Origin: an uncultured Mageeibacillus sp. | GTDB taxonomy: Bacteria > Bacillota > Clostridia > Saccharofermentanales > DTU023 | Assembly (NCBI GenBank): GCA_964493375.1 | Contig: CAZBOM010000001.1 | Span: 1-41,257, forward strand | Length of the DNA stretch: 41,257 nucleotides | Direction: 5' to 3' | In this document: positions 5,242 through 32,663 of the stretch, one piece after another | Numbering within the stretch: position 1 is the first letter of the stretch | Layout: every line of letters starts with the position of its first letter | Program-made: the position numbers and the translations under genes | Notes under the pieces: model-generated | The model's input: the letters and a program-made list of their open reading frames with translations, nothing else | Databases searched by the model: none | Told to the model about the DNA's origin: nothing

Positions 5242-5486
5242 GGGCGACCCTCGCTTTCTATCTGAAACACATCTATTTTCTGAACTCAAAAACTGGCTCC
5301 AGAAACTCTTCTGAAGCCAGTATAGTTTCAGGTTGAGACCGAGGTGTCTGCGCGATGCATACATCGCAGGCTTTTTTATCGATTGTTTATGTCAGTGAAA
5401 AACTTGAGTGAGAAGCGATGGTAAAACGAGCGCACGATCATCTGCTTGATTCAATGCTAGAGGGCTGTCATGAAATAAAACTGACG

Positions 5487-5534
5487 CCATGGCAAACTCA
5501 TGGGCGAACACCATGGCAAGCTCATGGGCGAACA
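5487..5534. repeat. Tandem direct repeat, 2 x 24 nt (ccatggcaaRctcatgggcgaaca), one mismatch
   Basis: Read directly: 5487-5510 and 5511-5534 are identical except for an a/g difference at unit position 10. The repeat is intergenic, between the pseudokinase stop (5570) and the zinc-ribbon gene start (5241). Confidence 0.9.
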
Positions 5535-5569
5535 TGATGAATCACATTTTATAGGATTAAACAAAACGG

Positions 5570-7138: not shown

Positions 7139-7143
7139 CACGA

Positions 7144-10100
7144 TCACCTCTTCTTTTGGAGTTGGTGGTCATTGGTGCCATCTAAACGAACACACCATAG
7201 ACGTCCGCCGTCATCATCATTGTGGTAAAAAATCCATTCGCCTGCGATATTAAAATCAATCGCACGACTTGACGTGATTTTGCTCCTATATTGACCGTCT
7301 AAAGAACACAGGTGAATCGTCTCCTCAAAGCGATCGATATAATAGATACCTCGACCCGTCACATTGATCATCGAAGCGCTCAATTCGGCGATAAAAGTCG
7401 TGTTACCTGTATTCGCGTCGACGCGAATCAACTCCTCATGGCCATTTTTTACCGTGGAGCAATAGATATCCCCTTCAAACAAGCAGACATTTTTGCACTC
7501 GCCATCGAGTAACCGCCTTACTTTGAAACTATTGATATCCATACTGTAGAGAGCGCTGTCTTTTCCGTATACAAATACGATTTTATCCTTGTCAACATTA
7601 ACCCATCGACAAGGGAAAAGGTCACTCCGCTTTTTAATACTGCCGTCGGCAATATCGAGAGAATAAAATCCATCCTCTCCGGCGATATAGTATTTCGAGT
7701 TCACAAGATGAAGTTTGCCCACCATGTCTTCGCGCAGAATATCGCGATCTAATGTATAGATGTTTGTTTGCATAATCTTTGAGCCGGAAGAATAGTAAAG
7801 CCACCCATTCATGTAGCTCAGCGCTTGCGCGTTTTGGCCGCGCACGATCACATCTCCCTCCGTCCCCTTTTCAGACATTTTGATGATGTCACCGTCGAGA
7901 ACATAAAAAACTGAATCGGCACCTTGCGCCGCAAAAGCGCCACCTTCAATCGCCATGTTACCGGGTCGATTGCCGCGCGTAGCATCTTCGTCCATATCGC
8001 CGATTTTGACAATGGGAGCATCTTCATACCCATCGACATATCCGATGTCAAAGCCGCTCTTATAACCTACTTGCACTCCTTTGTCTTTTCCCAGCTTGTT
8101 TCCAATACCGTAGGATAACAACGAAGGTAGCACCATCATGGTGACAAGACAGGCGGCGATCGCGATTCTTCGACTCGTTCTTCGGTGAGATTTCTCTCTC
8201 GTAATGAAATGGTCAATCACCTCGACGCTCTGGATGCGAGACTTCGGGTCAAAGGCGATGCATCGCTCAATCAAATTGCGCAATCGGTTATTCACGACTT
8301 TCGCCTCTAAATCTGATCGCGAAACATGCCCGGTTGCCATGAAAAGTATGACGACACCTAATGAATAGATATCGGTCAACGGTGACGTTTGCTCAAAACC
8401 GAATTGCTCCGGAGGCGCGTAGTCTAGCGTGAGCACGACCGATGTATCTTGCGTGCTCTCCTCTTTATGGACACGCGATATCCCGAAATCAATCAAGTGA
8501 ATACTTCCGTCATATCCCACAATGATATTCTGCGGTTTGATGTCGCGATGAATGACGGGAGGCGTTTGCGCGTGGAGATAACGGAGAATTTCCGTTATTT
8601 TAAGTACGACTCCAAAAATATCTTTTACACTTAGCACGCCTTTGGCTCTGACAATATCGTAGAGCGATCGCCCTGCGATGTATTCGCGGACAATATATTT
8701 CTTGCCGTCTTTTTCATAAGTTTCGAACACTTTTGGAATGCCGGGGTGGTCAAATGAACTTAAGATTTTCGCTTCTTCCAGAGCGTCTTCTTCGGGGTAA
8801 TCTTTTGTGACGCGGAGAATAGCCTTGATACCATCTTGCTTTCGTCTCAAAAGATAGATTTCTTTTTTGCCATTTTCGTCTTTTCGAATACAACTTTCAA
8901 AAGCGTAACGGTGAATCAACGCCTCCGGCATCCCTTCACAAGAGATCGTTTCATTAAGCGTTGCGTTATAAGCATTCAAGAAACTGTTGACATCACTGCC
9001 GAAATACTCGGGGTTTGATGAAGGGATAATTTTTGGCGATGACACTTGCATAGGCTCTCTCCCTTTCGCTCGACTCGGAGCCAAGCTTATTATGCGTTGC
9101 GAACTATTGATTGGCGCTAACTGAACTATTGTCCTCGGACGGATGCCACTGAACAGCTGAGGCGTCAGCAACACAGGGGCAAGAACTGTTCCAAACAGAA
9201 TGTAACAGTAGATGATGATGGTGACGGGGGCAATTCCTTTCCTTGTGATTAAGAAGAGACCTCGGTCTATACAAAGAACGGCGATCAATAGGAAACCTTT
9301 GTTTTTGCGCACAAATTCCGCAATCAATCGTAAGCCTTCCGTAAATCGCCCGTCGAGCTCATCGACACTCGTCGAAGGGAACGATTTCATGTTGAGTTTT
9401 ATTTTGTTGGCTAAATAACGACATGCTCCCGCGAGCATGGAGAACGCGTGACCGACAAAGGAGATGGCGACAATAACGGTGTGTGGAAATTTTTCTATCT
9501 TATCCTCAGGGAATCGGCTGCGCATCACAAATCCGCGTATACAAGGAAGAATCACAAAAAAGACATTACAGGTAATAAACCCCGCCCACAAGAGATGTAT
9601 ATTCCCAAAATAGCATTCGAGCAATACAGTCGGGATGAGCATGATCTCATTGATGATCGAGAAAAAATACAAGAACATATAAAACGCGTCGCATTTTCGT
9701 GTTCTCCCGAGAACAATCGTGCCGTCAAAAATCATCTCAAACAACCCATACGAATATCGATGTTGTTTCCCCGTTTCCTCGGCAAATGTTCGGCTCACAT
9801 ATTCGGTAAACTCGAGACCGTTTAGCTGAGCGTATTTCCCGTGATACCCCATATTGTAAAAACCGATCGCTTTATCAAAATCCTCGGAGACTTTGTTTTC
9901 GGACCAAAGCCCGCTTTTTTCCAAAATACTCTTTCTGATAAAAGCGTTATGTCCCACCAGAGGGACAAAGAACCCTTGGAGCGCTTTACATGGCCAAATA
10001 TTGTGAAAGAGATTGTTCGTCTGGTGTCCTGTCGCATAAGAAAAATAATTGTCCGACATATTAATCGCGACGGTCGCGCATTGTATATAGGCGAGTTTGT

Positions 10101-10974
10101 CATCGGATGCGAATTCGGGGACGACCGCCTCAATTATCTTCTCTTTGACGCCGGAATCTTTGTCCAGCAAAAGAATTATTTCTCGAGTCTCAATATCGCC
10201 TTCGGCATACCCTCCTTCGAACGTGCCGCCCGCGCGCGTCAAATCACCGAGAGCATTCCCCTGGACTGTCGCATTGCCAAGTCGAATCGTGTAATTAAGA
10301 TTGGAAGCTTTCTTGAAAAGACCTGCACGCCCTTGAGCCGGTCTCACAACAAAAGCGACACCTGATCGCCTGTAAAATGCGATGCGCTCAGCCGCTTTCA
10401 TTTCTTTCTCAGAAAGTTGATTTGAATTACTCGAGAATCGATGCATCAGATCATCCGCGATATCACGTGAGCAGATACCACCCAATAACGGTGCGAGACC
10501 ATCATCGGACACGATGATGTTGGCCGATAGACCGCTGTATTGTTGATAGCGTTTCGCGGCCGCGATACTACCGCGAATCGTCTCAAAGATGACGGCATTC
10601 TCTTCAGTGTATACGGGGATACTGATGGTGACAGGAAAATACGAGGAACGCTCAACCTCACTTCTCGCGACATTCATATAATGCTTTCTATTAATTCGCG
10701 TAACCCCTGAGAGAATATCGCAGACGGAAGGTCGCAAAGACCAGAGAACATCAGCCAAATAATAAAACGGATAAATAAAAAAAATAAAAGATACTAGCAA
10801 TCGAAATAAGCTCTGGATCGACATGCCATACAGAAAAAACAATCCTACATGGATGAAGGCATTAAGTGCGAGCGAAGCAACATATGGCCATACGCCGCAA
10901 ATACCGTTCCCGAGTGTCTCCGGTATTCTCTTCGCCCGTCTCGTTCGGTTTTTCTTCACCCTGATCATCGCCAT
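7144..10974 (-). CDS. Multidomain membrane protein: cellulose-synthase-like family-2 glycosyltransferase + Hanks-type Ser/Thr protein kinase + extracytoplasmic DUF5050-like beta-propeller
   Basis: 1276-aa ORF. GT2 motifs are DDG (157-159), KKASNLN (221-227), DKD (271-273), SED (363-365) and QHRYS (404-408), followed by a multi-TM bundle (about 425-605). The kinase carries HRDIKPQN (809-816), DFG (829-831) and APPE (853-856). A TM helix spans about 936-955, and propeller-type repeats run to residue 1270. Confidence 0.8.
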   Translation of the reverse strand: MAMIRVKKNRTRRAKRIPETLGNGICGVWPYVASLALNAFIHVGLFFLYGMSIQSLFRLLVSFIFFIYPFYYLADVLWSLRPSVCDILSGVTRINRKHYMNVARSEVERSSYFPVTISIPVYTEENAVIFETIRGSIAAAKRYQQYSGLSANIIVSDDGLAPLLGGICSRDIADDLMHRFSSNSNQLSEKEMKAAERIAFYRRSGVAFVVRPAQGRAGLFKKASNLNYTIRLGNATVQGNALGDLTRAGGTFEGGYAEGDIETREIILLLDKDSGVKEKIIEAVVPEFASDDKLAYIQCATVAINMSDNYFSYATGHQTNNLFHNIWPCKALQGFFVPLVGHNAFIRKSILEKSGLWSENKVSEDFDKAIGFYNMGYHGKYAQLNGLEFTEYVSRTFAEETGKQHRYSYGLFEMIFDGTIVLGRTRKCDAFYMFLYFFSIINEIMLIPTVLLECYFGNIHLLWAGFITCNVFFVILPCIRGFVMRSRFPEDKIEKFPHTVIVAISFVGHAFSMLAGACRYLANKIKLNMKSFPSTSVDELDGRFTEGLRLIAEFVRKNKGFLLIAVLCIDRGLFLITRKGIAPVTIIIYCYILFGTVLAPVLLTPQLFSGIRPRTIVQLAPINSSQRIISLAPSRAKGREPMQVSSPKIIPSSNPEYFGSDVNSFLNAYNATLNETISCEGMPEALIHRYAFESCIRKDENGKKEIYLLRRKQDGIKAILRVTKDYPEEDALEEAKILSSFDHPGIPKVFETYEKDGKKYIVREYIAGRSLYDIVRAKGVLSVKDIFGVVLKITEILRYLHAQTPPVIHRDIKPQNIIVGYDGSIHLIDFGISRVHKEESTQDTSVVLTLDYAPPEQFGFEQTSPLTDIYSLGVVILFMATGHVSRSDLEAKVVNNRLRNLIERCIAFDPKSRIQSVEVIDHFITREKSHRRTSRRIAIAACLVTMMVLPSLLSYGIGNKLGKDKGVQVGYKSGFDIGYVDGYEDAPIVKIGDMDEDATRGNRPGNMAIEGGAFAAQGADSVFYVLDGDIIKMSEKGTEGDVIVRGQNAQALSYMNGWLYYSSGSKIMQTNIYTLDRDILREDMVGKLHLVNSKYYIAGEDGFYSLDIADGSIKKRSDLFPCRWVNVDKDKIVFVYGKDSALYSMDINSFKVRRLLDGECKNVCLFEGDIYCSTVKNGHEELIRVDANTGNTTFIAELSASMINVTGRGIYYIDRFEETIHLCSLDGQYRSKITSSRAIDFNIAGEWIFYHNDDDGGRLWCVRLDGTNDHQLQKKR

Positions 10975-10981: not shown

Positions 10982-12256
10982 TTATTTTCCAAATGGATTT
11001 GCCTTCATTTGCGCGAGCGCATACCAACTCGTCGCACTGATACTCTGTTGATTGTGATACTCCCAAAGGACTTTTGAACCACTCACATAAAAGCCTGTTG
11101 AGACACCGTCTCTATCGGCGGCGGGGATGCTCCCATCACGCGCTTCCTGAGTTTTCAAATAGAGGATTTTCGAATCGTATTTTTCCGATTCGCCAAGCTC
11201 ACTGTAACAAAGAGCCATTTGGGCTGTTCCTTCATTCCATATGCCATCTAAGTCTCCGGCACTAAAATCAAATCCGGCCCCTATAGACATCCTGTCTTCG
11301 ACAAACGAAATAATTTTATGCGCGTTGAAAAGTTCCTCGCGAAGCGCCAGAATAGCCAGCGAATTGGAGTCTAAGGGAATAACGCCTTTACTGATTGTCT
11401 TTCCATCTTTCTCAGTGCCGGTATAAAAGCAATGAAATTTGTCATCATACATGGAGAGGACGAAAGACTTCGCGTGGTCGGATGCCTCGAAATAGACGGC
11501 CGCTTTTGTCGGATCACTTTCTTTAATCGCGCCGGCCATCACGTTGAATGCTCGGATCAGGTCAATGTTGTGCTCTGTTGATTTGTAATCAACTTTTATC
11601 TGGTCGTTATCCCATCCTTCATAGCCGGCCGTAAAACCTCCCGTTGACGATTTTAATGTCAAAACAAAATCGGCCGCTCGGACGGCTGCATCAAGATACT
11701 CCGTTTTCTTGTCTACCGATGCATTTTCGGCAGCCTTACAAAGAGCCAATATGGACCACGCCATATTACCTGTCGACGTCGAAACGGTGTAATAATCCTC
11801 CTGCCAACGACCTGATTGCCAAAAACCGGGAAGCCTTATCGTCACTTTCCCACCTGTGATGGAGCGTCCCGAATCGCTTCGTGGATCACCGCTCGTGTAG
11901 GCATTCCGAAATCGCCCGTCTTTGAACAACCGGTCGTGATCTTGGGCAAACACGAGCACATCGGCCAATTTTTGTACGTGCCATACGGCTCCCGCTTCTG
12001 ATAACGCGATCAAGGCCATAGCATTGTCATATATATATGCATGGTCCGAAGGACCGCCCTTACTTTCATCAACGCTCGCAATAAAACCGCCGCTCTCTTC
12101 CACACAACCGGCGAGAAATCCGGCGGCAGAAGATACATTTCTTATGTCATTTGCCGCCGGTTTAATCTCTTCACTACCACGGCATCCCGTGATTGTTAAT
12201 AAAAAAATAAAGATCAAGGATAGCGCGATCCTTCTCTGTCTCGCTGTATTTTTCAT
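10982..12256 (-). CDS. Secreted lipoprotein with predicted (alpha/alpha)6-toroid fold (glycoside-hydrolase-like or terpenoid-cyclase-like)
   Basis: The track ORF starts at a TTG (12268), whereas the ATG at 12256 follows a GGAGG SD. The signal peptide plus lipobox reads MKNTARQRRIALSLIFIFLLTITGC. Hairpin-helix signatures recur: YDNAMALIAL, GNMAWSILAL, EHNIDLIRAF, DSNSLAILAL, NEGTAQMALCY, SATSWYALAQ. Only 7 nt separate it from the synthase-kinase gene. Confidence 0.6.
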   Translation of the reverse strand: MKNTARQRRIALSLIFIFLLTITGCRGSEEIKPAANDIRNVSSAAGFLAGCVEESGGFIASVDESKGGPSDHAYIYDNAMALIALSEAGAVWHVQKLADVLVFAQDHDRLFKDGRFRNAYTSGDPRSDSGRSITGGKVTIRLPGFWQSGRWQEDYYTVSTSTGNMAWSILALCKAAENASVDKKTEYLDAAVRAADFVLTLKSSTGGFTAGYEGWDNDQIKVDYKSTEHNIDLIRAFNVMAGAIKESDPTKAAVYFEASDHAKSFVLSMYDDKFHCFYTGTEKDGKTISKGVIPLDSNSLAILALREELFNAHKIISFVEDRMSIGAGFDFSAGDLDGIWNEGTAQMALCYSELGESEKYDSKILYLKTQEARDGSIPAADRDGVSTGFYVSGSKVLWEYHNQQSISATSWYALAQMKANPFGK

Positions 12257-12299
12257 ACAGACCTCCAAGTGCTCAGCAGAAATGACTCGTCGTCTTTAA

Positions 12300-12352
12300 T
12301 TAATAAAATTATAGGTGTGGGGATGATCATTCCTGTATGCGCATGGCATACA
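12300..12352 (-). promoter_or_regulatory. Candidate promoter/operator of the envelope cluster: -10 TATAAT (12308-12313, minus strand) with a perfect 7-bp inverted repeat TGTATGC-N5-GCATACA (12334-12352) over the -35 region
   Basis: Read directly from the sequence. The -35 hexamer itself is poor. The function is inferred. Confidence 0.3.
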
Positions 12353-12363
12353 AAAGGCTTCAA

Positions 12364-12822
12364 TCAGTCGTTCTCCGTCCCGTCGTCCAAGGGCGCTAAT
12401 TGCAACGTTCGCATAAACTCATAAGTATCAATGATGTCATAGCCGTGGTTAATCGCGAAAATGATCGCGGCATCTCGTTTGATGAGAGGATGTAAAGCCC
12501 CGGAATGTGTGACGGCCAACATGCGTTGCGTTGTCTTCAAATCGAGAGACATGGCGATCGCAATTAAAAGATAATAATCTCTTTTCCCCAGCCTTCGCCC
12601 CTCCATAATCTGATAACCATACGTGCGCGACAAATTAGCTTTGCGAATGACTTCGCTTTTCTTTTGTCCTGTCTGCGTGAGCAGGTCATCAAAAAAAGCC
12701 CGGATATCATCATCCAGAAAAGCGTCCCAATGTTGTGGGAAAGAGTCGCCTTTCAGTTGTTCTTGCATGAGTTTTGTGTCTAAAGGATTTTTCGGACGAC
12801 TTTGATCGTTCATCTGACTCAT
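12364..12822 (-). CDS. Small helix-turn-helix (XRE-like) protein
   Basis: 152-aa ORF. The central segment KKSEVIRKANLSRTYGYQIMEGRRLGKRDYYLLIAIAMSL looks like an HTH followed by helices. The family assignment is from memory only. Confidence 0.5.
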   Translation of the reverse strand: MSQMNDQSRPKNPLDTKLMQEQLKGDSFPQHWDAFLDDDIRAFFDDLLTQTGQKKSEVIRKANLSRTYGYQIMEGRRLGKRDYYLLIAIAMSLDLKTTQRMLAVTHSGALHPLIKRDAAIIFAINHGYDIIDTYEFMRTLQLAPLDDGTEND

Positions 12823-12920: not shown

Positions 12921-15900
12921 TCAATTGACCCATGAAGCAACGCTGCCCTCGGAATCAATTCGCACTTGTAGTTGTTGGTTGATCGCTTGTTTCAGCATGG
13001 GGACGTGAGAGATCACGCCAATCAAACGGTTGTCAACGGAGAGGTCTTGCAAGACATGGATGGCGTCTTGAAGCGATTCCTCGTCGAGACCACCAAAGCC
13101 TTCATCGATAAAAAGCGCGTCGATCTCCACACCACCCGCATGTTCAGACACGACATCAGAGAGACCAAGCGCCATCGAAAGCGCCGCTTGGAATTTCTCA
13201 CCGCCGGATAGCGTCGAGACGGGGCGCGTCTTCGCTGTCCAGAGATCTTCTACGGAAAGATCAAGCCCCGTTCTTGATCGTCCATCTTTACCTTTCTCAG
13301 ATCGAATGAGCTCATAGCGGCCGTTTGTCATTCTCGCGAACCGTTGGTTGGCACGATTGATCACCTGTGTAAAATACCACGTCTGAATAAAGACCTCGAA
13401 ACTAATTTTATCGGCCTCTTTGTGGTTACCTGTCGCGAGATCGGCTATATCTGACAGCATTTTTTCTTCTTCTAGAGCTTCCAATGTTTTCTTATGCATC
13501 GATTTGATACTCTCGAGAATATCTTGATATTTAGCAACGCGTCCCGATTGCTCAAGATGAGCTTCTTTCAATGCAGATAGTTGCTTTTGCAACGCATCAA
13601 CGACCGCCACTTCCTCGGCTTCATCTCGCTTTGACAGTCCTTTTATCTCACGGCTCAGGCGATCGAGATCGCGGACGTTCGCATCTCGCTTGCTTTTCTC
13701 CTCGTCGACCTTCTGTTCCAAATCAATGCGCTCATCATCTTTGAGGCGCTTCTCTCGATAATCATTCTCCGAGACAAACAAACCTTTCTCCAGCGCTTCG
13801 TAAAACTCATTTTCTTTCGCGAGATAATGCTTCTTTGCCGAATCACAGGCTAATTGAATGCTCTTTAGCGTCGCTTCGGCGGCTGTTAACGTTTCACGGG
13901 CTTGTCTCTCATTTTCTGTCGCCTGCTTGTATTCTCGCTCAAGGAGATCCTGACGTTCTTTTTTCTGGTCGAGAGATGTTTTAACTGTTCCGAGCGATGC
14001 ACCCGACACGCGTTTTGTTAAAGCTGAAATCTCTCCTTCCAGCTTCGTCGCCCTCAATTTCCCTTCTTGGATCTCTCGGCTCTTTAACGCGATTTTCTCT
14101 GTGAGATTTCGCATAGCTTCGCTTGTCTCTGTTATGTCGCGCTTAAGTTCTTCTCGGCGATCAGATTGAGCCTGTAAAGCCTTTTGCTTTTGATCGGCAT
14201 CCGATTGTTCTGATGTCAAGAATTCGTTCAACTGCTGCAAGCTGTCTTGCAACTCAACTATTTTTTGGGTCATGAATTCGAGCGCGCCACCGGTTAATTC
14301 CGAGTCATGTGTCGCTTCAATTTCTTCTTGTCGATTGAGACAAGGAAGTTTATCGGTCAGAGCGTCAGCTTGAAATGAGACGCGATCAAGCGTTGATCGT
14401 GTCTTCGAGATATCTCTTTCGAGAGCCGAACTGGCCTCATCCGCGATTTGGCGTTTCGCTTGCGCTTCCTTTTCGAGACGCTCGACTGCCGCTTCATCAA
14501 GGGAATCTTCCGACAAGGTCGCTTTATGCGGGTGCTCTTTCGAGCCGCACACAGGACACGGTTCCCCCTCGACTAACTGAAGAGCCAAATAGCCGGCTCG
14601 TTCTCGAAACAGAAGATCGGAAGCTTCGTGCGCTTCTTCAGCCGTTTCTCGCCACGCCTGTCGCTTCTCTTCGCACTGCTCGCGTTGTTTTAAAAGCCCT
14701 TCTACATCTTTTTTGAGGTTGTCGGCGTCTTGGCGCAGTGAAGATACTTTCAAGTGATCAGCCCGCACATCATCGGCATGCGCTTTTGCCATCGTCAAGT
14801 CATGAGCGACGTCTGCCAAAGAATCGAGTTCATCCTGCTTTTCCTGCAGCGCATCGCTGAGCTCAGAACGCGTGGTGAGAAATTGCTCATGCGAATTCTC
14901 AGCTTCTTCAACAACCTTGTTCTGAGTCTCAGCCGCTTGTTGCAGAGGAGCTAAACTTTCCAAGATCTTGAGTTCATCCTCAAGTTTGCTTATCTCTAGA
15001 GGAAGCTCTCCCCGTTCGCGATCGTATTCTTTCGCTTTAGCCAATTGAGAGGCAGCCTTGTCCAAATCGACAGCGGCATCATGCCTGTTTTCTTCCGCTT
15101 GCTGAAGGTTTTCTTTCGTTTCTTTTAAGGTGCTTCTCGCTCCTTCTAAAGCATTCCAGGATGGATCGACGAGGCGTGTCGCGCGGTCGTCATCTTCGAG
15201 ACGTTTTTTCATCTGTTCAAACGCTCGCTCCGTTGCTTTCAACTGATCGCGTTCTTCGACCGCTTTGTCAAACTCGAGAAGTTTCTCATTGTCTTTACGC
15301 AACTGTTCGAGTGATATTTGAGCTCTCCCCAGGCGACGGTCGGCCGCTTCTTCCTCTCGACGAACAATATTGAGAGAGCTCACCATCTCGGCATCAATAC
15401 GATCGAGATCAGTGATACACTCGGCGACACTCCAGAACGAGCGCAACGAGACAATCTCTGCAAATCTCAGTCTAGCTTCTGTCTCTTCTTCGGGAAGCAC
15501 AATACTCCCAAGCTGGTGAAACAGCATACCTTCAAGCATCGAGCGGTTCGACTTCGCGTTCTTATATTTCTCGGAGATTAGAAGCTGCATTTTCTCATAG
15601 AGACTTGTATTAAAAAGCTTCCTAAAGATCGCCGATCGATCGTTGCTGGACGTTCCGATAAGCTCATAAAACTCGCCTTGCGCAATCATCGCGACTTGCC
15701 GAAACTGCGTCTTATCAAGCCCCAACAACTCCGGGATGGTATCGTCAACCGTTTTGATTTTTGTCAACACGCGACCGTCAGGAAAGGTGAGCTCAACTTC
15801 CGCCGCGCACTCTGTCAATCCTTTGCCACGCATTTTGGGTCGCTCATATGCCGGACTTCGTCTGATCGTGTAAGTTTCACCTCGGAGAACAAATTCAAAC

Positions 15901-16136
15901 TCGACAAAGGTCTCCACATCAACGGCCGCAAAATCGCTTCGAAGTTTACTGCTCCCACGCGTCATGCCGCTCGTATCGTTATAAAGGGAATACATAATCG
16001 CGTCAAAGATCATCGTTTTGCCGGATCCCGTATCTCCCGTAATCAGAAACAATCCTTCATGCAGCTCGTCGAAAGATATGGTCGTCTTTTTCGCATATGA
16101 ACCAAAAGCGCTCATGGTCAGTCTAATCGGCTTCAT
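12921..16136 (-). CDS. sbcC: Exonuclease SbcC (SMC-like ATPase)
   Basis: 1071 aa. It has Walker A GDTGSGKT, a long coiled coil, a zinc hook CPVCGS, the signature LSGGEKF and Walker B LFIDEGFGGLD. An ATGA overlap joins it to sbcD. Confidence 0.9.
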   Translation of the reverse strand: MKPIRLTMSAFGSYAKKTTISFDELHEGLFLITGDTGSGKTMIFDAIMYSLYNDTSGMTRGSSKLRSDFAAVDVETFVEFEFVLRGETYTIRRSPAYERPKMRGKGLTECAAEVELTFPDGRVLTKIKTVDDTIPELLGLDKTQFRQVAMIAQGEFYELIGTSSNDRSAIFRKLFNTSLYEKMQLLISEKYKNAKSNRSMLEGMLFHQLGSIVLPEEETEARLRFAEIVSLRSFWSVAECITDLDRIDAEMVSSLNIVRREEEAADRRLGRAQISLEQLRKDNEKLLEFDKAVEERDQLKATERAFEQMKKRLEDDDRATRLVDPSWNALEGARSTLKETKENLQQAEENRHDAAVDLDKAASQLAKAKEYDRERGELPLEISKLEDELKILESLAPLQQAAETQNKVVEEAENSHEQFLTTRSELSDALQEKQDELDSLADVAHDLTMAKAHADDVRADHLKVSSLRQDADNLKKDVEGLLKQREQCEEKRQAWRETAEEAHEASDLLFRERAGYLALQLVEGEPCPVCGSKEHPHKATLSEDSLDEAAVERLEKEAQAKRQIADEASSALERDISKTRSTLDRVSFQADALTDKLPCLNRQEEIEATHDSELTGGALEFMTQKIVELQDSLQQLNEFLTSEQSDADQKQKALQAQSDRREELKRDITETSEAMRNLTEKIALKSREIQEGKLRATKLEGEISALTKRVSGASLGTVKTSLDQKKERQDLLEREYKQATENERQARETLTAAEATLKSIQLACDSAKKHYLAKENEFYEALEKGLFVSENDYREKRLKDDERIDLEQKVDEEKSKRDANVRDLDRLSREIKGLSKRDEAEEVAVVDALQKQLSALKEAHLEQSGRVAKYQDILESIKSMHKKTLEALEEEKMLSDIADLATGNHKEADKISFEVFIQTWYFTQVINRANQRFARMTNGRYELIRSEKGKDGRSRTGLDLSVEDLWTAKTRPVSTLSGGEKFQAALSMALGLSDVVSEHAGGVEIDALFIDEGFGGLDEESLQDAIHVLQDLSVDNRLIGVISHVPMLKQAINQQLQVRIDSEGSVASWVN

Positions 16137-17314
16137 GAGATGCCTCCTGCGGCTTCTTCTTCCGCCCTTTGCGCTACTATGCGCACGACGGATAGTTGTT
16201 CATCTGACATTTTGCGCCCCAATTGACGCTCGAAAAAATCTGTGAATAAATCGACCGCGCTTTTCTTTGTCAAATCCGCCTTCGATAAAAGTACCCCCTT
16301 AGCCATCTCCTCCGAGCGCTCTCGGTCAAAAAGGAGACGCATAATATAGGGGTAGTATTCTCTTAAACGGTTCATCGGATCGGTGACGGGACCTTGGTCT
16401 GTCAGAGTCACTTCGAGATAGTCCAATCGAGACTTATCTTCGTCTCGCTTCATCACTTCACCTTGCTCTAAAAGTTCTGATAATGTTCCTCGAATACGGC
16501 GCATATCGCGCAATCGCGCCAATGGTTTTTGTCTGATGGTGACAATTTTGTCAGGCGATAAGTCAACGACGAGCGCACCCTTTACATGATTGGCCTCCGA
16601 AAAGGAATACGGTAGCGGCGAGCCTGAGTAATAGACGTGATCGGTACCAACTTGTTGTCTCCCGTGAAGATGCCCGAGCGCAACGTAATCAAATCCCGAA
16701 AAAACGTCGACATTAATTTCGTCCGCTGTGCCGACTTGCAACATCTCCGAATCGGAGCGAAGAAGGTTTGAGCCTTTCGCGATGACGAATTGATGGGCGA
16801 TTATCACATTCATCCCTTCTTTGCGTATCACCGTTGAAAGCGCGGCCTCGACAGCTTCTTCCACCGTCTTGATCTCACGGTCTGGGAAAAAGCGTCGCAC
16901 CATTCCGGCTCGAATAAAGGGCATAAGGTGGAAATTTGTCTTATATCCATCCTCGTCGCAGACCACTTCGACGCACGGAACAGATCCGTCAAAAACGCCT
17001 GCGATATGAATGTTATGTTTCTCAAGAAAAGATCGTCCAAACGACAAACGCTCACCTGAATCGTGGTTGCCGGCGACGATGAGAATCGGTATCGAGAGAT
17101 TTGACAATTGAATGAGAAAGTTCTCGAACAAATCGATCGCTTCAACCGAGGGGATCGCTTTGTCGTAAATATCGCCCGCTATGACGATCGCATTTGGCTT
17201 TTCAAGTCGGCACAATTCGACGATAGAATCGAGCATAACTTGCTGATCGTCCACCATTGAGAATTCGTGCACTCGCTTCCCAAGATGCAGATCAGAGACG
17301 TGAATAAATCGCAC
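16133..17314 (-). CDS. sbcD: Exonuclease SbcD (Mre11-type metallophosphoesterase)
   Basis: 393 aa, with MRFIHVSDLHLGK, AGDIYD, GNHD and GHLHG motifs. The GTG start is preceded by a GGAGAA SD that lies in the tail of the patatin gene. Confidence 0.9.
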   Translation of the reverse strand: MRFIHVSDLHLGKRVHEFSMVDDQQVMLDSIVELCRLEKPNAIVIAGDIYDKAIPSVEAIDLFENFLIQLSNLSIPILIVAGNHDSGERLSFGRSFLEKHNIHIAGVFDGSVPCVEVVCDEDGYKTNFHLMPFIRAGMVRRFFPDREIKTVEEAVEAALSTVIRKEGMNVIIAHQFVIAKGSNLLRSDSEMLQVGTADEINVDVFSGFDYVALGHLHGRQQVGTDHVYYSGSPLPYSFSEANHVKGALVVDLSPDKIVTIRQKPLARLRDMRRIRGTLSELLEQGEVMKRDEDKSRLDYLEVTLTDQGPVTDPMNRLREYYPYIMRLLFDRERSEEMAKGVLLSKADLTKKSAVDLFTDFFERQLGRKMSDEQLSVVRIVAQRAEEEAAGGIS

Positions 17315-18423: not shown

Positions 18424-18948
18424 TCAGCATTTCCAAGCGACAAAATAGAGATACCAAAGAGCGGAAATTAGAATCGAAATGGTGATAATTAAAGTGATCC
18501 ATCTCCATCGCGACATCGCCTCTGACTGCACGACAATGCCATCCTTTCGACTCTTAAACAAACTGATCTCTCTGTCGTTTCGGTTGTGCCATACTCTGAC
18601 AAAGCAGAGGAGACGGTAGTAAGGGATCCCAAAACCGTAAGCGTGACGCCATACGTATAATGCTCTCATTGACGATTGCTTCATGTTAAGTTTTCCTTGT
18701 CTAGAATGAACGACGGATAAACCAAGAAGTTTTTTCCCAATCGTTGTCCCACACCATACGATGAAAACGACTTCACTTAGGAACATCAAAATAATGGCGA
18801 CAAATTGATCGACTAATATTCTCGCGAGATCTCTATTCGCAGTCCCTTTCAATAAATAGAGATAGAGAAAATTCCAGAAAACAAGCCACATAGAAAAATC
18901 GATCAAACGCGCGAATGCCCTTCGTAAAAGATGGTTCACCATGCTCAT
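18424..18948 (-). CDS. RDD-family membrane protein
   Basis: 174 aa. The N-terminal RRAFARLIDFSMW is RDD-type, and there are 3-4 hydrophobic helices. Confidence 0.6.
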   Translation of the reverse strand: MSMVNHLLRRAFARLIDFSMWLVFWNFLYLYLLKGTANRDLARILVDQFVAIILMFLSEVVFIVWCGTTIGKKLLGLSVVHSRQGKLNMKQSSMRALYVWRHAYGFGIPYYRLLCFVRVWHNRNDREISLFKSRKDGIVVQSEAMSRWRWITLIITISILISALWYLYFVAWKC

Positions 18949-19152
18949 ATCAACCCTTCATCTCTATTGCCAACCGATATTAAGCGTAACCACTTTTTTC
19001 TCCGCGACATACGATCTTCTGATTCCAAATCAGTCGAGGCGAGTCAATTTGAAAGTTCAGCCTTTAGGTTGGCATTTTTTATGATGAGTTCAGCTTCGAT
19101 GTGGTAAAATGCAAACACTTGCCACGGTTCACTCGGAGGCTTTTTTGTGTGC

Positions 19153-19181
19153 TTATCGATGAATGGTGAACGATGTTAAAT
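19153..19181 (+). promoter_or_regulatory. Candidate sigma-A promoter of aspS-gatAB (TTATCG-17 nt-TGtTTAAAT)
   Basis: -35 at 19153-19158, a 17-nt spacer, and an extended -10 with TG at 19174-19175 and the hexamer at 19176-19181. Both hexamers match the consensus only weakly. Confidence 0.25.
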
Positions 19182-19221
19182 AATGATGTAAAACACAAAA
19201 TTGATCATTGGACGACAACAT

Positions 19222-21312
19222 ATGAAACGAACTAATTATTGCGGACTTTTTTCAGAGCAGGACGTCGGGAAACAGACGACAGCCTGCGGTTGGGTTGAGA
19301 CGAAACGCGATATGGGCGGCGTGATCTTCATTGATCTCGTCGACCGCGAAGGCGTACTTCAGATCGTCTTCAATCCGGCGTATACAGATCCTGAAGCATT
19401 TGCTCTCGCCGAGCGCGTCAGAAATCAATCAACACTTTTGGTTGAAGGGACGATGTTCCTCCGCGATGAGGAGACGGTCAACCCGAAGATCGCGACGGGA
19501 ACGGTTGAATTGCGTGTGACGCGAGCCGATCTACTTTCCACTTGTGGCGATCTCCCCTTTAACCCCGCCGAAGCGGACGATGTGAGAGAGGACTTGCGCC
19601 TGCGTTATCGTTATCTCGATTTGAGACGCAAGCGTCTGCGCGATAATATCCGCTTTCGTCATCGCGTCACATCGGCCATTCGTCGATTCATGGATGGCGA
19701 AGGGTTTGTCGATATCGAGACACCGATTCTGACGAAGAGCACCCCGGAAGGCGCGCGCGACTATCTCGTTCCGAGCCGTGTCCACCCCGGTTCTTTCTAC
19801 GCTCTGCCGCAGTCTCCGCAAATATTCAAACAACTTCTGATGGTGTCGGGATTCGATCGCTATTACCAGATCGCGCGTTGCTTCCGCGACGAAGATCTTC
19901 GAGCCGACCGACAACCTGAATTCACACAGCTCGACTTGGAAATGTCTTTCATCGAGATGGAAGATATTCTCTCAACACTCGAGAACTTATTCCGATCTGT
20001 TATGGCGGAAGTAAAAGGCATCGAATTTGATGAACCTTTCCCGCGCTTCACTTGGGCTGAGGCGATGGATCTCTACGGCAGTGACAAACCTGATCTGCGC
20101 TTTGACCTGCCTATCGTCGATATCACCGATATTGCGGCGACATCGGGATTCTCTGTGTTTACTAAAGTAGTCGAAGCCGGCGGTGTCGTTCGCGCCATCA
20201 ACGTGCCGGGACAATCCGACTTCACACGCGCCACCATTAATGAACTGACGGATTTCGCGATTTCCGAAGGTGCCGGCGGCATGGCGTGGATCGCTTGGCG
20301 TCCATCGGGTGAAATCTACTCCATTTTGACAAAATTCGTCGATGAGAAAAACATGCTTGCACTGCTTGAGCGCGTCGGTGCCAAGCCGGGCGATTTCGTT
20401 TTATTCTCAGCCGATAAACTCGATGTCGTCCGCCGCGTCTCCGGTGCGCTTCGACTCCGACTCGGTGAGATGCTGGGACTTCGCGATCCGAACAAATTCG
20501 CCTTCGCAATCGTCACTGAATTCCCCATGTTCGAATTCAATGAAGAAGAAGGACGATATACGGCGCAACACCACCCATTCACCATGCCGTTCGAGGAAGA
20601 TCTCGATTATCTCGTTTCCGATCCGCCGCGCGTTCGATCACAAGCTTATGATTTCGTTTTGAACGGAACAGAGCTCGGATCAGGTAGCATTCGTATACAC
20701 CGCGGCGACATCCAACGACGCGTTTTCCAAGCGTTGGGACTCGGCGAGAAAGATATTGAGGAACGCTTTGGCTTCATGATCAACGCGTTTGCTTATGGCG
20801 CGCCACCGCACGGCGGGTTTGCGTTCGGACTTGACAGACTCGTCATGATTCTCGCGGGCGAGCAATCACTCCGCGATGTCATCGCATTCCCGAAAATACG
20901 CGATGCCTCTTGCCCGATGACGGAAGCGCCGACACCTGTCGCCGATGACCAGCTTGAAGCGCTCGGCATCCGCCTCGTCGATTCCGTGCGATCGGAGATG
21001 GGACGTCCCGTCAGCCGGGAAGAAAAACGGCGGACGGAACTCGATATCAAACGATTAACCGGTGATTCCCGCCTCATTTTATCCGCGGAAGAAGAAGACG
21101 GTATGCGCGACAGCTTGCTCGAACTGATTTCTTTTGCCGATGCGCTCCACGAGATTGATACAGAGGGAGTTGACCCTACCTTCACTTCTTCTGAAGCACA
21201 TGATGTCTGGCTCACACCGCGCGATGATCGCGCGTTATCGGCAGAGGACGCGCTCGCCAACGCGCCGGACTCTCGAGAGCCGTTCTTTTTCGTGCCGCCC
21301 GTCGTTGAGTGA
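19222..21312 (+). CDS. aspS: Aspartate--tRNA ligase (bacterial type with GAD insertion) fused in frame to a C-terminal GatC domain
   Basis: The track ORF starts at a TTG (19201), but the canonical AspRS N-terminus MKRTNYCG begins at the ATG at 19222. Class II motifs are present (FRDEDLRADRQPEFTQLD, GSGSIRIH, GLDRLVM). The protein is about 110 aa longer than a typical bacterial AspRS, and the tail aligns with GatC (see next feature). Confidence 0.9.
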   Translation: MKRTNYCGLFSEQDVGKQTTACGWVETKRDMGGVIFIDLVDREGVLQIVFNPAYTDPEAFALAERVRNQSTLLVEGTMFLRDEETVNPKIATGTVELRVTRADLLSTCGDLPFNPAEADDVREDLRLRYRYLDLRRKRLRDNIRFRHRVTSAIRRFMDGEGFVDIETPILTKSTPEGARDYLVPSRVHPGSFYALPQSPQIFKQLLMVSGFDRYYQIARCFRDEDLRADRQPEFTQLDLEMSFIEMEDILSTLENLFRSVMAEVKGIEFDEPFPRFTWAEAMDLYGSDKPDLRFDLPIVDITDIAATSGFSVFTKVVEAGGVVRAINVPGQSDFTRATINELTDFAISEGAGGMAWIAWRPSGEIYSILTKFVDEKNMLALLERVGAKPGDFVLFSADKLDVVRRVSGALRLRLGEMLGLRDPNKFAFAIVTEFPMFEFNEEEGRYTAQHHPFTMPFEEDLDYLVSDPPRVRSQAYDFVLNGTELGSGSIRIHRGDIQRRVFQALGLGEKDIEERFGFMINAFAYGAPPHGGFAFGLDRLVMILAGEQSLRDVIAFPKIRDASCPMTEAPTPVADDQLEALGIRLVDSVRSEMGRPVSREEKRRTELDIKRLTGDSRLILSAEEEDGMRDSLLELISFADALHEIDTEGVDPTFTSSEAHDVWLTPRDDRALSAEDALANAPDSREPFFFVPPVVE
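21037..21309 (+). other. gatC: GatC-homologous domain forming the C-terminus of the AspRS polypeptide
   Basis: ELDIKRLTGDSRLILSAEEEDGMRDSLLELISFADALHEIDTEGVDPTF...SAEDALANAPDSREPFFFVPPVVE aligns along its full length with B. subtilis GatC (recalled sequence ...[41 protein letters not shown]...[20 protein letters not shown]). There is no stop codon between the AspRS core and this domain. Confidence 0.8.
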
Positions 21313-21326
21313 GAAGGGAAACTGAG

Positions 21327-22799
21327 ATGGACTATCAAACAATGCAATTGAAACAATTGGCGGAAGGATTACGAGCACGCGAATTTTCTTCGAGAGAACT
21401 CACGGAATCTGTCTTTGCGACCATTGAAAAAAACGACCCGACCATAGGCGCTTATATCACACTGACGCGCGATTATGCTCTAAAGCAGGCCGATCGAGTC
21501 GATGAGCTTCTGGCTGAGGGGTTGGCACTCCCCGCTCTCGCCGGTATTCCCGGAGCACTCAAAGATAACATCGCGACTTCGGGAATCCGAACAACCAACG
21601 CTTCAAAGATGCTCGCCGATTTCATTCCGCCTTATGACGCGTTCGTTTGGAGACTGCTCCGACAACAAGAAATGGTGCTCTTGGGCAAACTCAATATGGA
21701 TGAGTTCGCCATGGGACATTCGACGGAAACGTCGGCGTTTCATCTGACTCGCAACCCGTATGACACGACGCGCGTACCCGGTGGCAGCTCCGGTGGCTCG
21801 GCGGCGGCCGTCGCATCGGGCGAAGCTTTTTTTGCTCTCGGCTCCGATACGGGTGGATCGATACGACAACCGGCCTCTCTCTGTGGGATCGTTGGGATGC
21901 GCCCTACTTACGGTCTCGTCTCGAGGCGCGGCGTGACGACATTCTCTTCTTCTCTCGATCAAGTCGGTCCCATGACGAGAAGCGTTCGCGACAACGCCTT
22001 ATTGCTCGACACGATTGCCTTTTTCGACTACAAGGACGCGCAGATGGTCAAGCGACCGGACGGCTCTTATGTCGAGGCGATTGAGAAGCCTCTCGGTCAA
22101 CCTGTGATCGGCTGGCCTCAATCATATTTTGAAACAGACGATTTGCTCGATGAAGTCAAAGAACAACTTGAAAAAGCGCGCGACTTTTACGAATCGATCG
22201 GCACCCGTATTGTTCCGATTGATCTCAAAACACTTGACGCCTGCATGGCCGGCTATTACATCATCTCGAGCGCCGAAGGCTATTCAAGTATGAACCGCTA
22301 CGATGGCATCCACTTCGGCTATCGAAGTGATAAGGGCGAGACACTCGAAGAAATCTATGTTCATTCGCGCTCGGAAGGTCTCGGCGCCGAAGTCAAACGT
22401 CGTATCCTGTTAGGTTGCTTCGCGCTCTCACAGGAAAATTTCGACGACTATTTCTTAAAGGCGGCAAAAGCCCGCACCATCGTCATCCGCGAATTCGAAG
22501 AGATCTTTGAGACTTGCGACGCGATCCTCACGCCTGTCACGGCGACACCGGCATGGCCTCTCGGCACACACCCGGAAGATTTGGGGGGCAACAAATACAG
22601 CAACGATCGCTTCACCTTGCCACCATCACTCACCGGCATGCCGGCGCTGGCGATTCCCGCAGGATTGACGAAAGAAGGTCTTCCTGTCGGAATGCAACTG
22701 ATAGGACCGCGCTTTTCAGAAGGCATGCTCTATAAACTCGCAGCCGCTTTTGAAGACGCGCACGGGTTATTACCCCTGCCAACGGAGGTGAAAGCATGA
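21327..22799 (+). CDS. gatA: Asp-tRNA(Asn)/Glu-tRNA(Gln) amidotransferase subunit A
   Basis: It carries the amidase signature [12 protein letters not shown]...[12 protein letters not shown]. The ATG at 21327 lies 14 nt after the aspS stop and has an AAGGGA SD; the track ORF begins upstream at 21309. Confidence 0.9.
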
Positions 22800-24253
22800 G
22801 TATCCACGATTATGAAAGTGTGATCGGCCTCGAAGTTCACGTCGAGTTGAATACAAAACATAAAGCCTTTTGCGAATGTTCGACAACCTTTGGAGCACCT
22901 CCTAATTCACAAGTATGTCCTGTTTGTCTCGCGATGCCCGGAGCGCTCCCCGTTCTGAATCGCGAAGTCGTCGATTTTGCCATTATGGCCGGTTTGGCAA
23001 CACACTGCACGATCGAACCGACCTCGCGCTTCGATCGCAAGAATTATTTCTACCCGGACCTTCCGAAGGCATACCAGACGACACAGAATGACTATCCCAT
23101 TTGCACGAACGGTTATGTCGATGTGGCGAGCAGTGATTGCCAAGAAAATGATTCCGAGGGTTGTGTCGCCGGTATGCGACGCATCAGAATCTCGCAAATC
23201 CATATGGAAGAAGACGCCGGCAAACTGATTCACCACACCGACGGGACAGAGATCGATTGCAATCGTTGCGGTGTGCCTCTGCTCGAGATTGTCTCCGAAC
23301 CCGATGCGCGCTCAGCCGAAGAAGCCGTCGCCTATCTTCGCAAATTGAGAGCGATGGTTCGCTATACCGGTATTTCCGATGGCAAGATGAACGAAGGATC
23401 GCTTCGATGCGATGTCAACTTGTCGATTCGCAAAAAAGGTGAATCAACTTACGGGACGCGCGTCGAGATCAAAAACATCAACTCCTTTAACTTTGTCGCT
23501 CGAGCCATTGAAAGCGAATTCAAACGTCAAGTCGAGCTCCTCGAAGAAGGCGAAAGAATCGTCCAAGAGACTCGTCGATTCGATGAAAAGACAGGCCAAA
23601 CGTATTCGATGCGGTCGAAAGAAAACGCCGCCGATTACAGATACTTCCCCGACCCCGATCTCGTTCCCGTCCGCGTCACAGACGAAGAGATTGAAGCCAT
23701 TCGAAAGACGATCCCGCGCATGGCGGACGAGCGACGAGCCATCTACACCGACACTTATGAACTGACACCTTACGAAGCGGAGCGTCTGACAGAAGACAAG
23801 GAGATGAGCGATTTCTTCGAAAAAGCCGTCACGCACACGAGCTACCCGAAAACGCTCGTCAACCTCATCCTCGCCGATATCTCGCCTCTCTTCACTGAAG
23901 ATACGGTCGAGATCCCGGTCAACCCCGCAAGCTTAGGCGCGCTGGCTGACCTGCTCGGACAAGATGAGATCAACAGCAATACGGGCCGTCGCATCTTAAA
24001 ATCTCTCTTAGAGAAAGATTTCGATCCCAAGGATTACGTGCGAGAGCACAATCTCGCCCAGATCAACGATCGCGATGCTTTACAACCGGCCGTTCAAGCC
24101 GCCATCGCCGCTCATGAGCGTGCCGTCAAAGATTATCTCGGCGGCAAAGAAGCGGCTCTTCGAGCGGTCATCGGTTTTGTCATGAAAGAGACGCAAGGCC
24201 GAGCTAACCCCGTTCTCGTCGAAGCGATGATCCGCGAAGCCATCTCGAAATGA
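22796..24253 (+). CDS. gatB: Asp-tRNA(Asn)/Glu-tRNA(Gln) amidotransferase subunit B
   Basis: 485 aa, with IGLEVHVELNT, CPVCLAMPGALPVLN and HMEEDAGKL. An ATGA overlap joins it to gatA. Confidence 0.9.
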   Translation: MSIHDYESVIGLEVHVELNTKHKAFCECSTTFGAPPNSQVCPVCLAMPGALPVLNREVVDFAIMAGLATHCTIEPTSRFDRKNYFYPDLPKAYQTTQNDYPICTNGYVDVASSDCQENDSEGCVAGMRRIRISQIHMEEDAGKLIHHTDGTEIDCNRCGVPLLEIVSEPDARSAEEAVAYLRKLRAMVRYTGISDGKMNEGSLRCDVNLSIRKKGESTYGTRVEIKNINSFNFVARAIESEFKRQVELLEEGERIVQETRRFDEKTGQTYSMRSKENAADYRYFPDPDLVPVRVTDEEIEAIRKTIPRMADERRAIYTDTYELTPYEAERLTEDKEMSDFFEKAVTHTSYPKTLVNLILADISPLFTEDTVEIPVNPASLGALADLLGQDEINSNTGRRILKSLLEKDFDPKDYVREHNLAQINDRDALQPAVQAAIAAHERAVKDYLGGKEAALRAVIGFVMKETQGRANPVLVEAMIREAISK

Positions 24254-24290
24254 TGATCTCTGTTTAATTTAACGGTGCGAATAAACAATA

Positions 24291-24322
24291 GAGGGCATCT
24301 CAGAAGAGATGTCCTCTTTTTG
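24291..24322 (+). terminator. Rho-independent terminator after gatB
   Basis: 11-bp stem gagggcatctc / gagatgtcctc (one G-U pair), loop agaa, then TTTTT. Confidence 0.7.
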
Positions 24323-31415: not shown

Positions 31416-32663
31416 ATGAAACATACAATGCAAAGAATCGCCTGCATGACCGCGAGTGCCTTGATGGCAGTCGTCATGCTGGCTGTGCCCATTTCAACAG
31501 CTGTGATAAGCGGGCATGAGATTGTTTCGACGCAAAAAACACCGTCGTCGGAGCCGAGTGATGAGGAGCCTCCCATACGATACAACGAGGATGAAAAAGT
31601 TTTTATTCTCGACGAAACCGGTATTAACCGCCATCTGCTCTCGATTGATCACTCAAATGAGAACGTAAATGAAAATCAAGAAAAACCGTTAAAAACTGGA
31701 TTGTCGGGACATTCAATCTCCCCACAATCGAATCCATCAAACTCTCGCGACACCATCATTGTCAATCTGGATAACGCTGACTCAAATGCCCCGGATACAG
31801 ACCTCGAAACTTTTTCTGCCGATCGCAAACTTAATGCCAATCTCGAAAAAAAGAATGAAGAAATCATTGATGAATTCGAGCGTATTGCAGCTGAGCAAAA
31901 AGAAGCTGAAAGAGAAGAACAACTGAAGAAGGAAGCGGCTCGCAAAGCGGCACTAAAAAAAGAAGCCGAAGCAAAAGAGGCAAAGCGTCAAGCGGCGTTA
32001 AAGAAAGAAGCTGAAGCGAAGGAAGCGAAGCGTCAAGCAGCGTTAAAGAAAGAAGCTGAGCGTCAAGCGGCGTTAAAGAAAGAAGCTGAAGCAAAAGAAG
32101 CTGAGCGTCAAGCGGCATTAAATAATGAAGCGTCACGCGTAGAGGCATCGAATAACGCTGATCGCGTCGCTGATCATGCTACAAATGAGCAACCGCCTGC
32201 CACAGAGCAACCTACGCCTATCGTAGCGCCAACCGAACCGGCAGCGCCACCAAAATCGAATGGCAAGTTTCTCATAAAGATAAAGTATCCTGATAAGAAC
32301 TATGTCGGTAAACCGCTCAAAGTTAAGGATCGAAAATATCTGGAGGGATTAGTCATGGGAGAGTATGGCAACGATTATCTCGGAGCCGTTCTCGTCGCGC
32401 AATGTATCCGCGACTCCATGGTTAAGTCCGGAACGAATAGCGCCGCTGTTATTAAGCGCAAGTATGGCTATACAGCGCGCGTCCACTCAAAAGTGACCGA
32501 CCATGTCAAACGCGCCGTTGCTTTTGTATTTGACGAAGGCGGTAGTGCCGTGCAACATCCCATCTATTATTTCTACGCAAGTAACTACGTCAGAGGGCGT
32601 TGGCACGAAACACAGAAATTTATCGTACAAAGAAAAGCAGTCCGTTTCTTCAGCACACGATAG
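31416..32663 (+). CDS. Secreted protein with a charged K/E/A tandem-repeat region and a C-terminal SleB/CwlJ-like (cell-wall hydrolase) domain
   Basis: 415 aa. It has a signal peptide (MKHTMQRIACMTASALMAVVMLAVPISTAV), KKEAEAKEAKRQAAL repeats and a P-rich linker. The C-terminal LEGLVMGEYGNDYLGAVLVAQCIRD...YYFYAS resembles the Hydrolase_2 family; this assignment is from memory and is moderate. Confidence 0.55.
   Translation: MKHTMQRIACMTASALMAVVMLAVPISTAVISGHEIVSTQKTPSSEPSDEEPPIRYNEDEKVFILDETGINRHLLSIDHSNENVNENQEKPLKTGLSGHSISPQSNPSNSRDTIIVNLDNADSNAPDTDLETFSADRKLNANLEKKNEEIIDEFERIAAEQKEAEREEQLKKEAARKAALKKEAEAKEAKRQAALKKEAEAKEAKRQAALKKEAERQAALKKEAEAKEAERQAALNNEASRVEASNNADRVADHATNEQPPATEQPTPIVAPTEPAAPPKSNGKFLIKIKYPDKNYVGKPLKVKDRKYLEGLVMGEYGNDYLGAVLVAQCIRDSMVKSGTNSAAVIKRKYGYTARVHSKVTDHVKRAVAFVFDEGGSAVQHPIYYFYASNYVRGRWHETQKFIVQRKAVRFFSTR
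31947..32132 (+). repeat. In-frame imperfect tandem repeat, 45-nt unit (units at 31947, 31992 and 32067; a 30-nt short unit at 32037; a partial unit at 32112)
   Basis: Read directly: gcggcRttaaaRaaagaagcYgaagcRaaRgaRgcRaagcgtcaa repeated, encoding AALKKEAEAKEAKRQ. Confidence 0.85.

Follow-up and report, generated by a model that had tools for sequence, protein, structure and literature searches.

Organization of the aspS::gatC-gatA-gatB locus

We analyzed a window of 41 kb (41,257 nucleotides, the whole stretch of DNA under study), which is one contig of metagenome-assembled genome (MAG) type from an uncultured Mageeibacillus sp. In this window aspS, encoding the aspartyl-tRNA synthetase (AspRS), and gatC, encoding the GatC subunit of the amidotransferase GatCAB, were found joined in a single open frame, aspS::gatC, directly upstream of gatA and gatB on the same strand (Table 1). 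Homologues and the aspS profile alike place the start of the fusion at the ATG at 19222; an in-frame TTG at 19201 lies upstream of it, and the longest frame therefore runs from 19201..21312. The TGA stop occupies 21310-21312, and the ATG of gatA at 21327 follows exactly 14 nt beyond it. The genes gatA and gatB overlap by 4 nt (ATGA). A terminator-like hairpin downstream of gatB marks the predicted end of an aspS::gatC-gatA-gatB operon.

Table 1. Features of the fusion locus and of the related locus with a free-standing gatC. Positions are those of the window unless a locus is named.
Feature	Position	Strand	Evidence or remark
aspS::gatC fusion ORF	19222..21312	+	single open frame, 696 aa and TGA stop
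AspRS core, bacterial type, residues 1-586	19222..20979	+	NF001750, Pfam and PDB matches
Codon of Met31, where non-discriminating AspRS has His31	19312..19314	+	alignment with PDB sequences
Linker, residues 587-605	20980..21036	+	charged, variable in sequence, nearly constant in length
GatC domain, residues 606-696, free C-terminus …FFFVPPVVE	21037..21309	+	PF02686, TIGR00135, structure alignments
14-nt spacer with Shine-Dalgarno-like GAAGGGA of gatA	21313..21326	+	
gatA, 490 aa, amidase family	21327..22799	+	Pfam PF01425, E 1.4e-133
gatB, 485 aa, GatB_N and GatB_Yqey	22796..24253	+	PF02934 E 2.2e-122; PF02637 E 1.1e-33
Terminator-like hairpin, stem of 12 bp and then TTTTT	24290..24317	+	consensus scan only
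asnS, spacer and free gatC of the related lineage	L083:1401-3164 (also L082, L084)		asnS 461 aa, spacer 105 nt

Judged by profile and structure matches, residues 1-586 are a complete bacterial-type AspRS. The curated equivalog cutoffs were passed over exactly these residues, with 814.7 bits for NCBIfam aspS NF001750 (cutoff 443) and 739 bits for TIGR00459 (cutoff 373.85). Pfam placed the OB domain (tRNA_anti-codon, PF01336) at residues 20-101, the class II core (tRNA-synt_2, PF00152) at 123-559 and the GAD insertion (PF02938) at 313-404. The AspRS of Escherichia coli, Thermus thermophilus and Pseudomonas aeruginosa in the PDB matched residues 1-586/590 with E values of ~1e-176 to 1e-179.

The C-terminal part was recognized as GatC by PF02686 on residues 620-691 (E 3.7e-12). 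Taken by itself, the tail reached 50.5 bits for PF02686 (gathering threshold 23) and 47.7 bits for TIGR00135 gatC (cutoff 47.1), the latter decreasing to 43.0 bits within the full-length protein. Alignment with solved GatC structures covered residues 5-95 of 100 in Staphylococcus aureus (2DF4_C), 13-93 of 94 in Aquifex aeolicus (3H0L_C) and 12-92 of 92 in T. thermophilus (3KFU_G). By these matches the tail is a nearly full-length GatC, encoded together with gatA and gatB. The linker between both parts measures ~19-22 residues across the fused relatives, and its length varies by only +-3 even among lineages at 55-60% identity. No internal Met or Shine-Dalgarno sequence is kept in it across 27 aligned fused sequences. 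An AlphaFold2 monomer model of the fusion (alignment of 46 sequences, mean pLDDT 73.9) gave pLDDT values <50 over residues 559-605 and a partly ordered GatC part, with the tail not docked onto the AspRS core. An undocked and partly disordered tail is as expected from such a model for a tethered GatC awaiting its partners GatA and GatB.

Using a GatC HMM on all six frames of the window, the tail of the fusion was the sole match, and 27 other fusion loci were likewise found without a second GatC. The window contains no tRNA genes, so there was no tRNA(Asn) to inspect. No credible T-box or other leader was found with Rfam, neither in the window at the gathering threshold nor in 18900-19300 at E<=10. 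An earlier note, made from the letters of this DNA, had described an in-frame fusion of AspRS, linker and GatC upstream of gatA-gatB, and this description was confirmed by the single ORF, by the Pfam and NCBIfam matches and by the conservation in 26 species described below. Its boundaries for the GatC part and its distance from the fusion to gatA proved accurate. The HMM search agreed with its statement that no free-standing gatC lies nearby, and the GatC profiles did recognize the tail, on which the note had made its claim depend.

Distribution and selection of the fusion

A cluster search covering 5.8 billion clustered proteins (NCBI, JGI, ENA and Logan assemblies) yielded the same Pfam combination in at least 119 of the best 120 protein clusters, at 58-100% identity and with lengths of mostly 683-750 aa. 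Scanning GTDB with one genome per species, we found a match over all 696 residues in 26 species, each with an uninterrupted frame, a length of 690-698 aa and a GatC-type C-terminus. These species are biogas MAGs of 'Clostridiaceae'/Saccharofermentanales, Mageeibacillus, Oscillospiraceae and gut Eubacteriales. Contigs from the human gut of up to 411 kb bear the fusion too. It is also encoded by Ligaoa zhengdingensis NSJ-31 (Oscillospiraceae), a gut isolate in culture, whose fused protein (WP_249281795.1) is 60% identical. A deeper lineage (L081, ENA ERZ2647959 NODE_47, 236 kb) is also fused, with GatAB only 43% identical to that of the window.

In every locus with enough DNA, gatA-gatB lies directly 3' of the fusion. 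At 8-20 nt past the fusion stop gatA is provided with a Shine-Dalgarno sequence of its own, and every fusion locus has an equivalent spacer with GAGG/AAGGAG. A further 53 GTDB species encode an ordinary AspRS of ~590 aa at 49-53% identity. Since none of these 53 unfused aspS loci contains gatA or gatB inside 6 kb, the adjacency of aspS to gatAB is specific to the fusion clade.

Selection was estimated for close pairs of fused genes by the method of Nei and Gojobori. The AspRS core had dN/dS values of 0.02-0.07, as against 0.05-0.27 in GatC and 0.07-0.68 in the linker. On these estimates purifying selection acts on GatC in the fused frame and is relaxed in the linker.

An exhaustive search with the GatC tail returned mostly free GatC, as the full-length fusions were masked by 50% clustering. 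Three leads were obtained (P0123, P0214 and P0260), the first of which is treated in the next section. Searching for homologues of two fragments, P0260 and P0126, gave mainly further fragments and added the taxa Natronincolaceae and Clostridiales. P0260, a 'GatC' of 150 aa, was considered as a split gene and rejected, as L081:3375-5453 is an intact fusion broken by 344 N. This run of 344 N, a scaffold gap or masked stretch within aspS::gatC of L081, led to the spurious gene call. The resulting protein became a representative at the 50% clustering level, so that a fragment stands for the fusion in clustered databases. P0214 has 216 aa (L085:712-1362, ENA ERZ17292904 k87_781815) and consists of the AspRS OB domain, linker and GatC without the catalytic core. 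It carries the Met31-type motif NMGGV, has gatA 16 nt downstream, and occurs on one 2.9-kb contig only. A recurrent mini-protein was not supported: the relatives of P0214 found in metagenomes of the gut are either fragments or fusions of full length, and the ORF may be due to a deletion or to misassembly. A real P0214 would represent an anticodon reader appended to GatCAB.

A related lineage with asnS and a free-standing gatC

The lead P0123 is a free-standing GatC of 90 aa, 51% identical to the fused tails. Its lineage (L082-L084) was found on 12 contigs, including contig JBMNTA010000030.1 of NCBI GCA_050945495.1. The gene order there is asnS, a 105-nt spacer, gatC, gatA, gatB and an M42 peptidase gene, with asnS sitting exactly at the position of aspS in the fusion loci. 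The synthetase is a bona fide asparaginyl-tRNA synthetase (AsnRS), with 565 bits for NF003037 (cutoff 414). The free gatC has its own Shine-Dalgarno sequence and a TTG start. The frame of asnS continues through the spacer into gatC, with the TGA of asnS as the only stop. The translation of the spacer (…SRRTQQRKEVT-LDINAL…) resembles the linker/GatC junction of a fused relative, L007 (…SRRKRVAELDLNEL…).

A neighbour-joining tree of GatA and GatB (927 columns, midpoint-rooted) nested the lineage inside the fusion clade. In 496 of 500 bootstraps it grouped with the closest fused relatives of the window, excluding the fused L012/14/15, and in 4/500 it was placed outside the subclade's fused members. 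Given gene order, spacer and tree, the most parsimonious explanation would be a secondary fission: AsnRS took the place of AspRS, and gatC gained its own start. Judged from the frame of the spacer, an AsnRS-GatC product made by read-through across the single in-frame TGA is a formal possibility.

Further genes in the window

Upstream of aspS an sbcC-sbcD nuclease pair (Rad50/Mre11-type) is encoded on the - strand at 12921-17314, and genes for a patatin-like phospholipase and an RDD-family membrane protein lie between this pair and aspS. The context at 12921-17314 looks like ordinary housekeeping, with no signs of mobile elements near the operon. An unusual gene trio was observed at 3802-10974 (- strand). 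Its first gene encodes 1276 aa combining a GT2 glycosyltransferase, a Ser/Thr protein kinase and a C-terminal DUF5050, and is followed by two further genes, one for a DUF5050 protein of 525 aa and one for a zinc-ribbon/TPR protein of 520 aa. Three ORFs (428, 152 and 415 aa; window 10982-12822 and 31416-32663) had no Pfam match at E<=1e-4.

Relation to catalogued proteins and known transamidosomes

The architecture found here has a database entry. NCBIfam NF009460/PRK12820 is named 'bifunctional aspartyl-tRNA synthetase/aspartyl/glutamyl-tRNA amidotransferase subunit C' and has a profile length of 723. Order (AspRS, then GatC) and length are the same or similar, and the protein of the window aligns to profile positions 24-683, that of an Oscillospiraceae-type relative (L019) to 24-722. 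The fused proteins nevertheless fall outside the NF009460 equivalog, because their scores of 644.7 bits (window) and 654.4 bits (L019) lie under the curated cutoff of 1379 bits, while plain aspS profiles score higher with 815-825 bits. UniProt labels the Ligaoa zhengdingensis NSJ-31 protein 'Multifunctional fusion protein', and at NCBI this protein and all relatives are named 'aspartate--tRNA ligase' only. A full-text literature search found no paper on a natural AspRS-GatC fusion; the sole match for 'aspS-gatC' was an artificial operon (PMC4206432). The architecture thus appears to be catalogued in databases yet experimentally uncharacterized, and the protein of the window is a further instance of it, not a novel kind. 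The earlier note knew of no characterization of the fusion. This stands as far as papers are concerned; the fusion as such had already been recognized in NF009460 and by the UniProt label.

The closest functional systems are the non-covalent Asn-transamidosomes of Helicobacter pylori, P. aeruginosa (4WJ3) and T. thermophilus (3KFU), which comprise the same three protein activities and have the same proposed purpose, to keep Asp-tRNA(Asn) from being released. As in the fusion, the AspRS of H. pylori and P. aeruginosa is of the bacterial type with a GAD domain. Their association depends on tRNA, whereas AspRS and GatC are joined by a peptide bond here. A covalent link between GatC and a mischarging synthetase, made through a linker, is also present in chain C of PDB 3AL0, the crystal structure of the Gln-transamidosome of Thermotoga maritima. 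That protein is engineered, contains a class I glutamyl-tRNA synthetase and tethers the C-terminus of GatC, while the natural fusion tethers its N-terminus. 3AL0 chain C shows that a tethered synthetase-GatC is compatible with the structure of a transamidosome. Fusion of GatC to a neighbour in the gat operon by loss of a stop codon is further known from Mycobacterium smegmatis mutants (PMC7541841). There, the GatC-GatA fusion raises mistranslation, and no such fusion occurred in ~500 natural gatCAB operons surveyed (PMC7541841). It is harmful because the C-terminal hairpin of GatC must contact GatB (PMC7541841). Unlike these mutants, the AspRS-GatC fusion is an ancient and natural one kept by purifying selection, and leaves the C-terminus of GatC free.

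Proposed function of the fusion and alternative explanations

We propose that the fusion acts as a built-in Asn-transamidosome, a covalently tethered AspRS-GatC·GatAB, and consider this reading probable at roughly 60%. Within the single polypeptide, AspRS would hold the N-terminus of GatC by a flexible tether of ~20-45 residues, and GatA and GatB would be translated from the same mRNA right after the fusion. GatA requires GatC for folding and for binding of GatB (PMC2330236), and the fused GatC would be needed in the same way for GatA folding and for holding GatA to GatB. Each subunit of the AspRS dimer would nucleate one GatAB, giving (AspRS-GatC)2·GatA2·GatB2. Every GatAB would have to assemble on an AspRS subunit if the fused GatC is, as is likely, the only GatC of the cell. 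Asp-tRNA(Asn) leaving the synthetase would be amidated by an amidotransferase unable to diffuse away, and the peptide tether would stand in for a weak tRNA-mediated association. It would be compensatory because the transamidosome of the bacterial-type (GAD-containing) non-discriminating AspRS is dynamic and tRNA-dependent, and shows no protein-protein association without tRNA (PMC3367201). With the tRNA site of GatB free, the same particle could take Glu-tRNA(Gln), if the organism is without glutaminyl-tRNA synthetase (GlnRS). The assembly with GatAB, the charging of tRNA(Asn) by the fused AspRS and the channelling are steps that we infer.

A stricter version of this proposal is held tentatively, at somewhat less than even odds. 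Here the fusion would be an obligate covalent Asn-transamidosome, Met31, replacing the His31 of other non-discriminating AspRS, would serve to read both the GUC and the GUU anticodon, and the tether would be selected only under the indirect route to Asn-tRNA(Asn). Gain of AsnRS at the locus would then displace aspS and break the fusion, and gatC would regain a start. Indirect support for a link to Asn-tRNA(Asn), and for the main proposal, comes from the lineage with asnS. There the tether has been lost exactly where AsnRS is present at the locus, which would tie it to the indirect Asn route. No asnS, asnA/B or glnS was found in the 41 kb of the window, a span that cannot show their absence from the genome, nor in the +-6 kb around each fusion locus.

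Several observations weigh against the tethered Asn-transamidosome, first of all the residues that discriminate between tRNAs. The signature of a non-discriminating bacterial AspRS, reportedly going back to Bernard et al. in 2006, is His31 together with Gly83 (P. aeruginosa numbering). In our alignment the non-discriminating AspRS of P. aeruginosa and Mycobacterium tuberculosis have His/Gly, and the discriminating AspRS of E. coli and T. thermophilus have Leu and Lys/Pro. The fused AspRS differs from P. aeruginosa and M. tuberculosis in having Met31 and, at the equivalent of Gly83, Glu. Charging of tRNA(Asn) by the fused AspRS is hence not supported at the sequence level. We are aware of the fact that the signature is not absolute; its absence lowers confidence, and non-discriminating activity is still conceivable. 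Met31 was found in 27/27 fused sequences and 116/120 homologue clusters, with Leu or His in the unfused relatives. This Met may reflect an adaptation, specific to the clade, in how anticodon position 36 is recognized. Furthermore, the lineage with AsnRS retains gatCAB; the amidotransferase must therefore have another role there, for Gln-tRNA(Gln) or Asn biosynthesis. The tree that nests this lineage was built from GatA and GatB only, by neighbour-joining with a midpoint root, which is a caveat to the fission. That the linker reaches far enough between AspRS and GatCAB is also something we infer. The missing Asn-sensing leader upstream of aspS::gatC can be set against the proposal or taken as neutral. 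Of the claims made in the earlier note, the prediction of a non-discriminating AspRS did not hold by this signature. Its covalent transamidosome is plausible and in part supported, with fusion, conservation and selection speaking for it and the residues at 31 and 83 against.

A fusion serving stoichiometry and assembly without channelling to Asn is the best of the alternatives, and we regard it as unlikely. The AspRS would be discriminating, GatCAB would act mainly on Glu-tRNA(Gln), and neighbouring aspS and gatC would have lost the stop between them and been kept joined for 1:1 co-expression and co-translational capture of GatA. Met31 and Glu83 in place of His and Gly fit this explanation, and a gatA starting 14 nt past the fusion stop would be ideal for co-translational assembly. 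The AsnRS-bearing fission lineage still has gatCAB, which argues for a role independent of the absence of AsnRS. However, a passive fusion does not account for AsnRS standing in place of AspRS, at the same locus, in the one clade member that is unfused. The clade-specific adjacency of aspS and gatAB (0/53 unfused loci) also speaks against it, and an invariant, clade-specific Met31 at a residue linked to anticodon reading suggests an adaptation of tRNA recognition, not a passive fusion.

Release of GatC by proteolysis of the linker or by internal initiation, resulting in an ordinary free AspRS and GatCAB, is given little credence. Being disordered and little conserved, the linker is a possible protease target, and that of the window contains an ATG (SEMGRP, 20998-21000). 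However, no relative conserves this Met, and neither a Shine-Dalgarno sequence nor a start ahead of GatC is conserved in the aligned fused sequences. The nearly constant linker length argues for a spacer function, and in the fission lineage a TTG start with a new Shine-Dalgarno sequence had to evolve. An artefact of sequencing or assembly, i.e., a lost stop or a shifted frame at the aspS-gatC junction, which the earlier note had named as a way to undo its claim, has a negligible chance: the same in-frame junction recurs in 26 species and in more than 100 clusters at 55-88% identity, in long contigs from the gut and in a cultured isolate, and the dN/dS of the tail lies far under 1.

Significance for annotation and for the indirect route to Asn-tRNA(Asn)

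That partners which interact become fused is well known, and the present case has consequences for annotation. Within the full-length protein TIGR00135 stays under its cutoff, and GatC therefore goes unannotated in these genomes. With 'aspartate--tRNA ligase' as the only name, automated pathway reconstruction would score GatC, and GatCAB along with it, as missing and may mis-predict the routes to Asn- and Gln-tRNA in fusion-bearing genomes.

Whether Asp-tRNA(Asn) is channelled or handled kinetically in the transamidosome is still argued from complexes studied in vitro. A natural AspRS-GatC tether can be cut or lengthened to measure the effect on fidelity. The fusion is found in common Clostridia of anaerobic digesters and the human gut and in at least one cultured isolate, which makes it a tractable system. 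If the obligate version of our proposal is true, gain and loss of the tether in these Clostridia would be a natural experiment linking the stability of the transamidosome to the dependence on the pathway.

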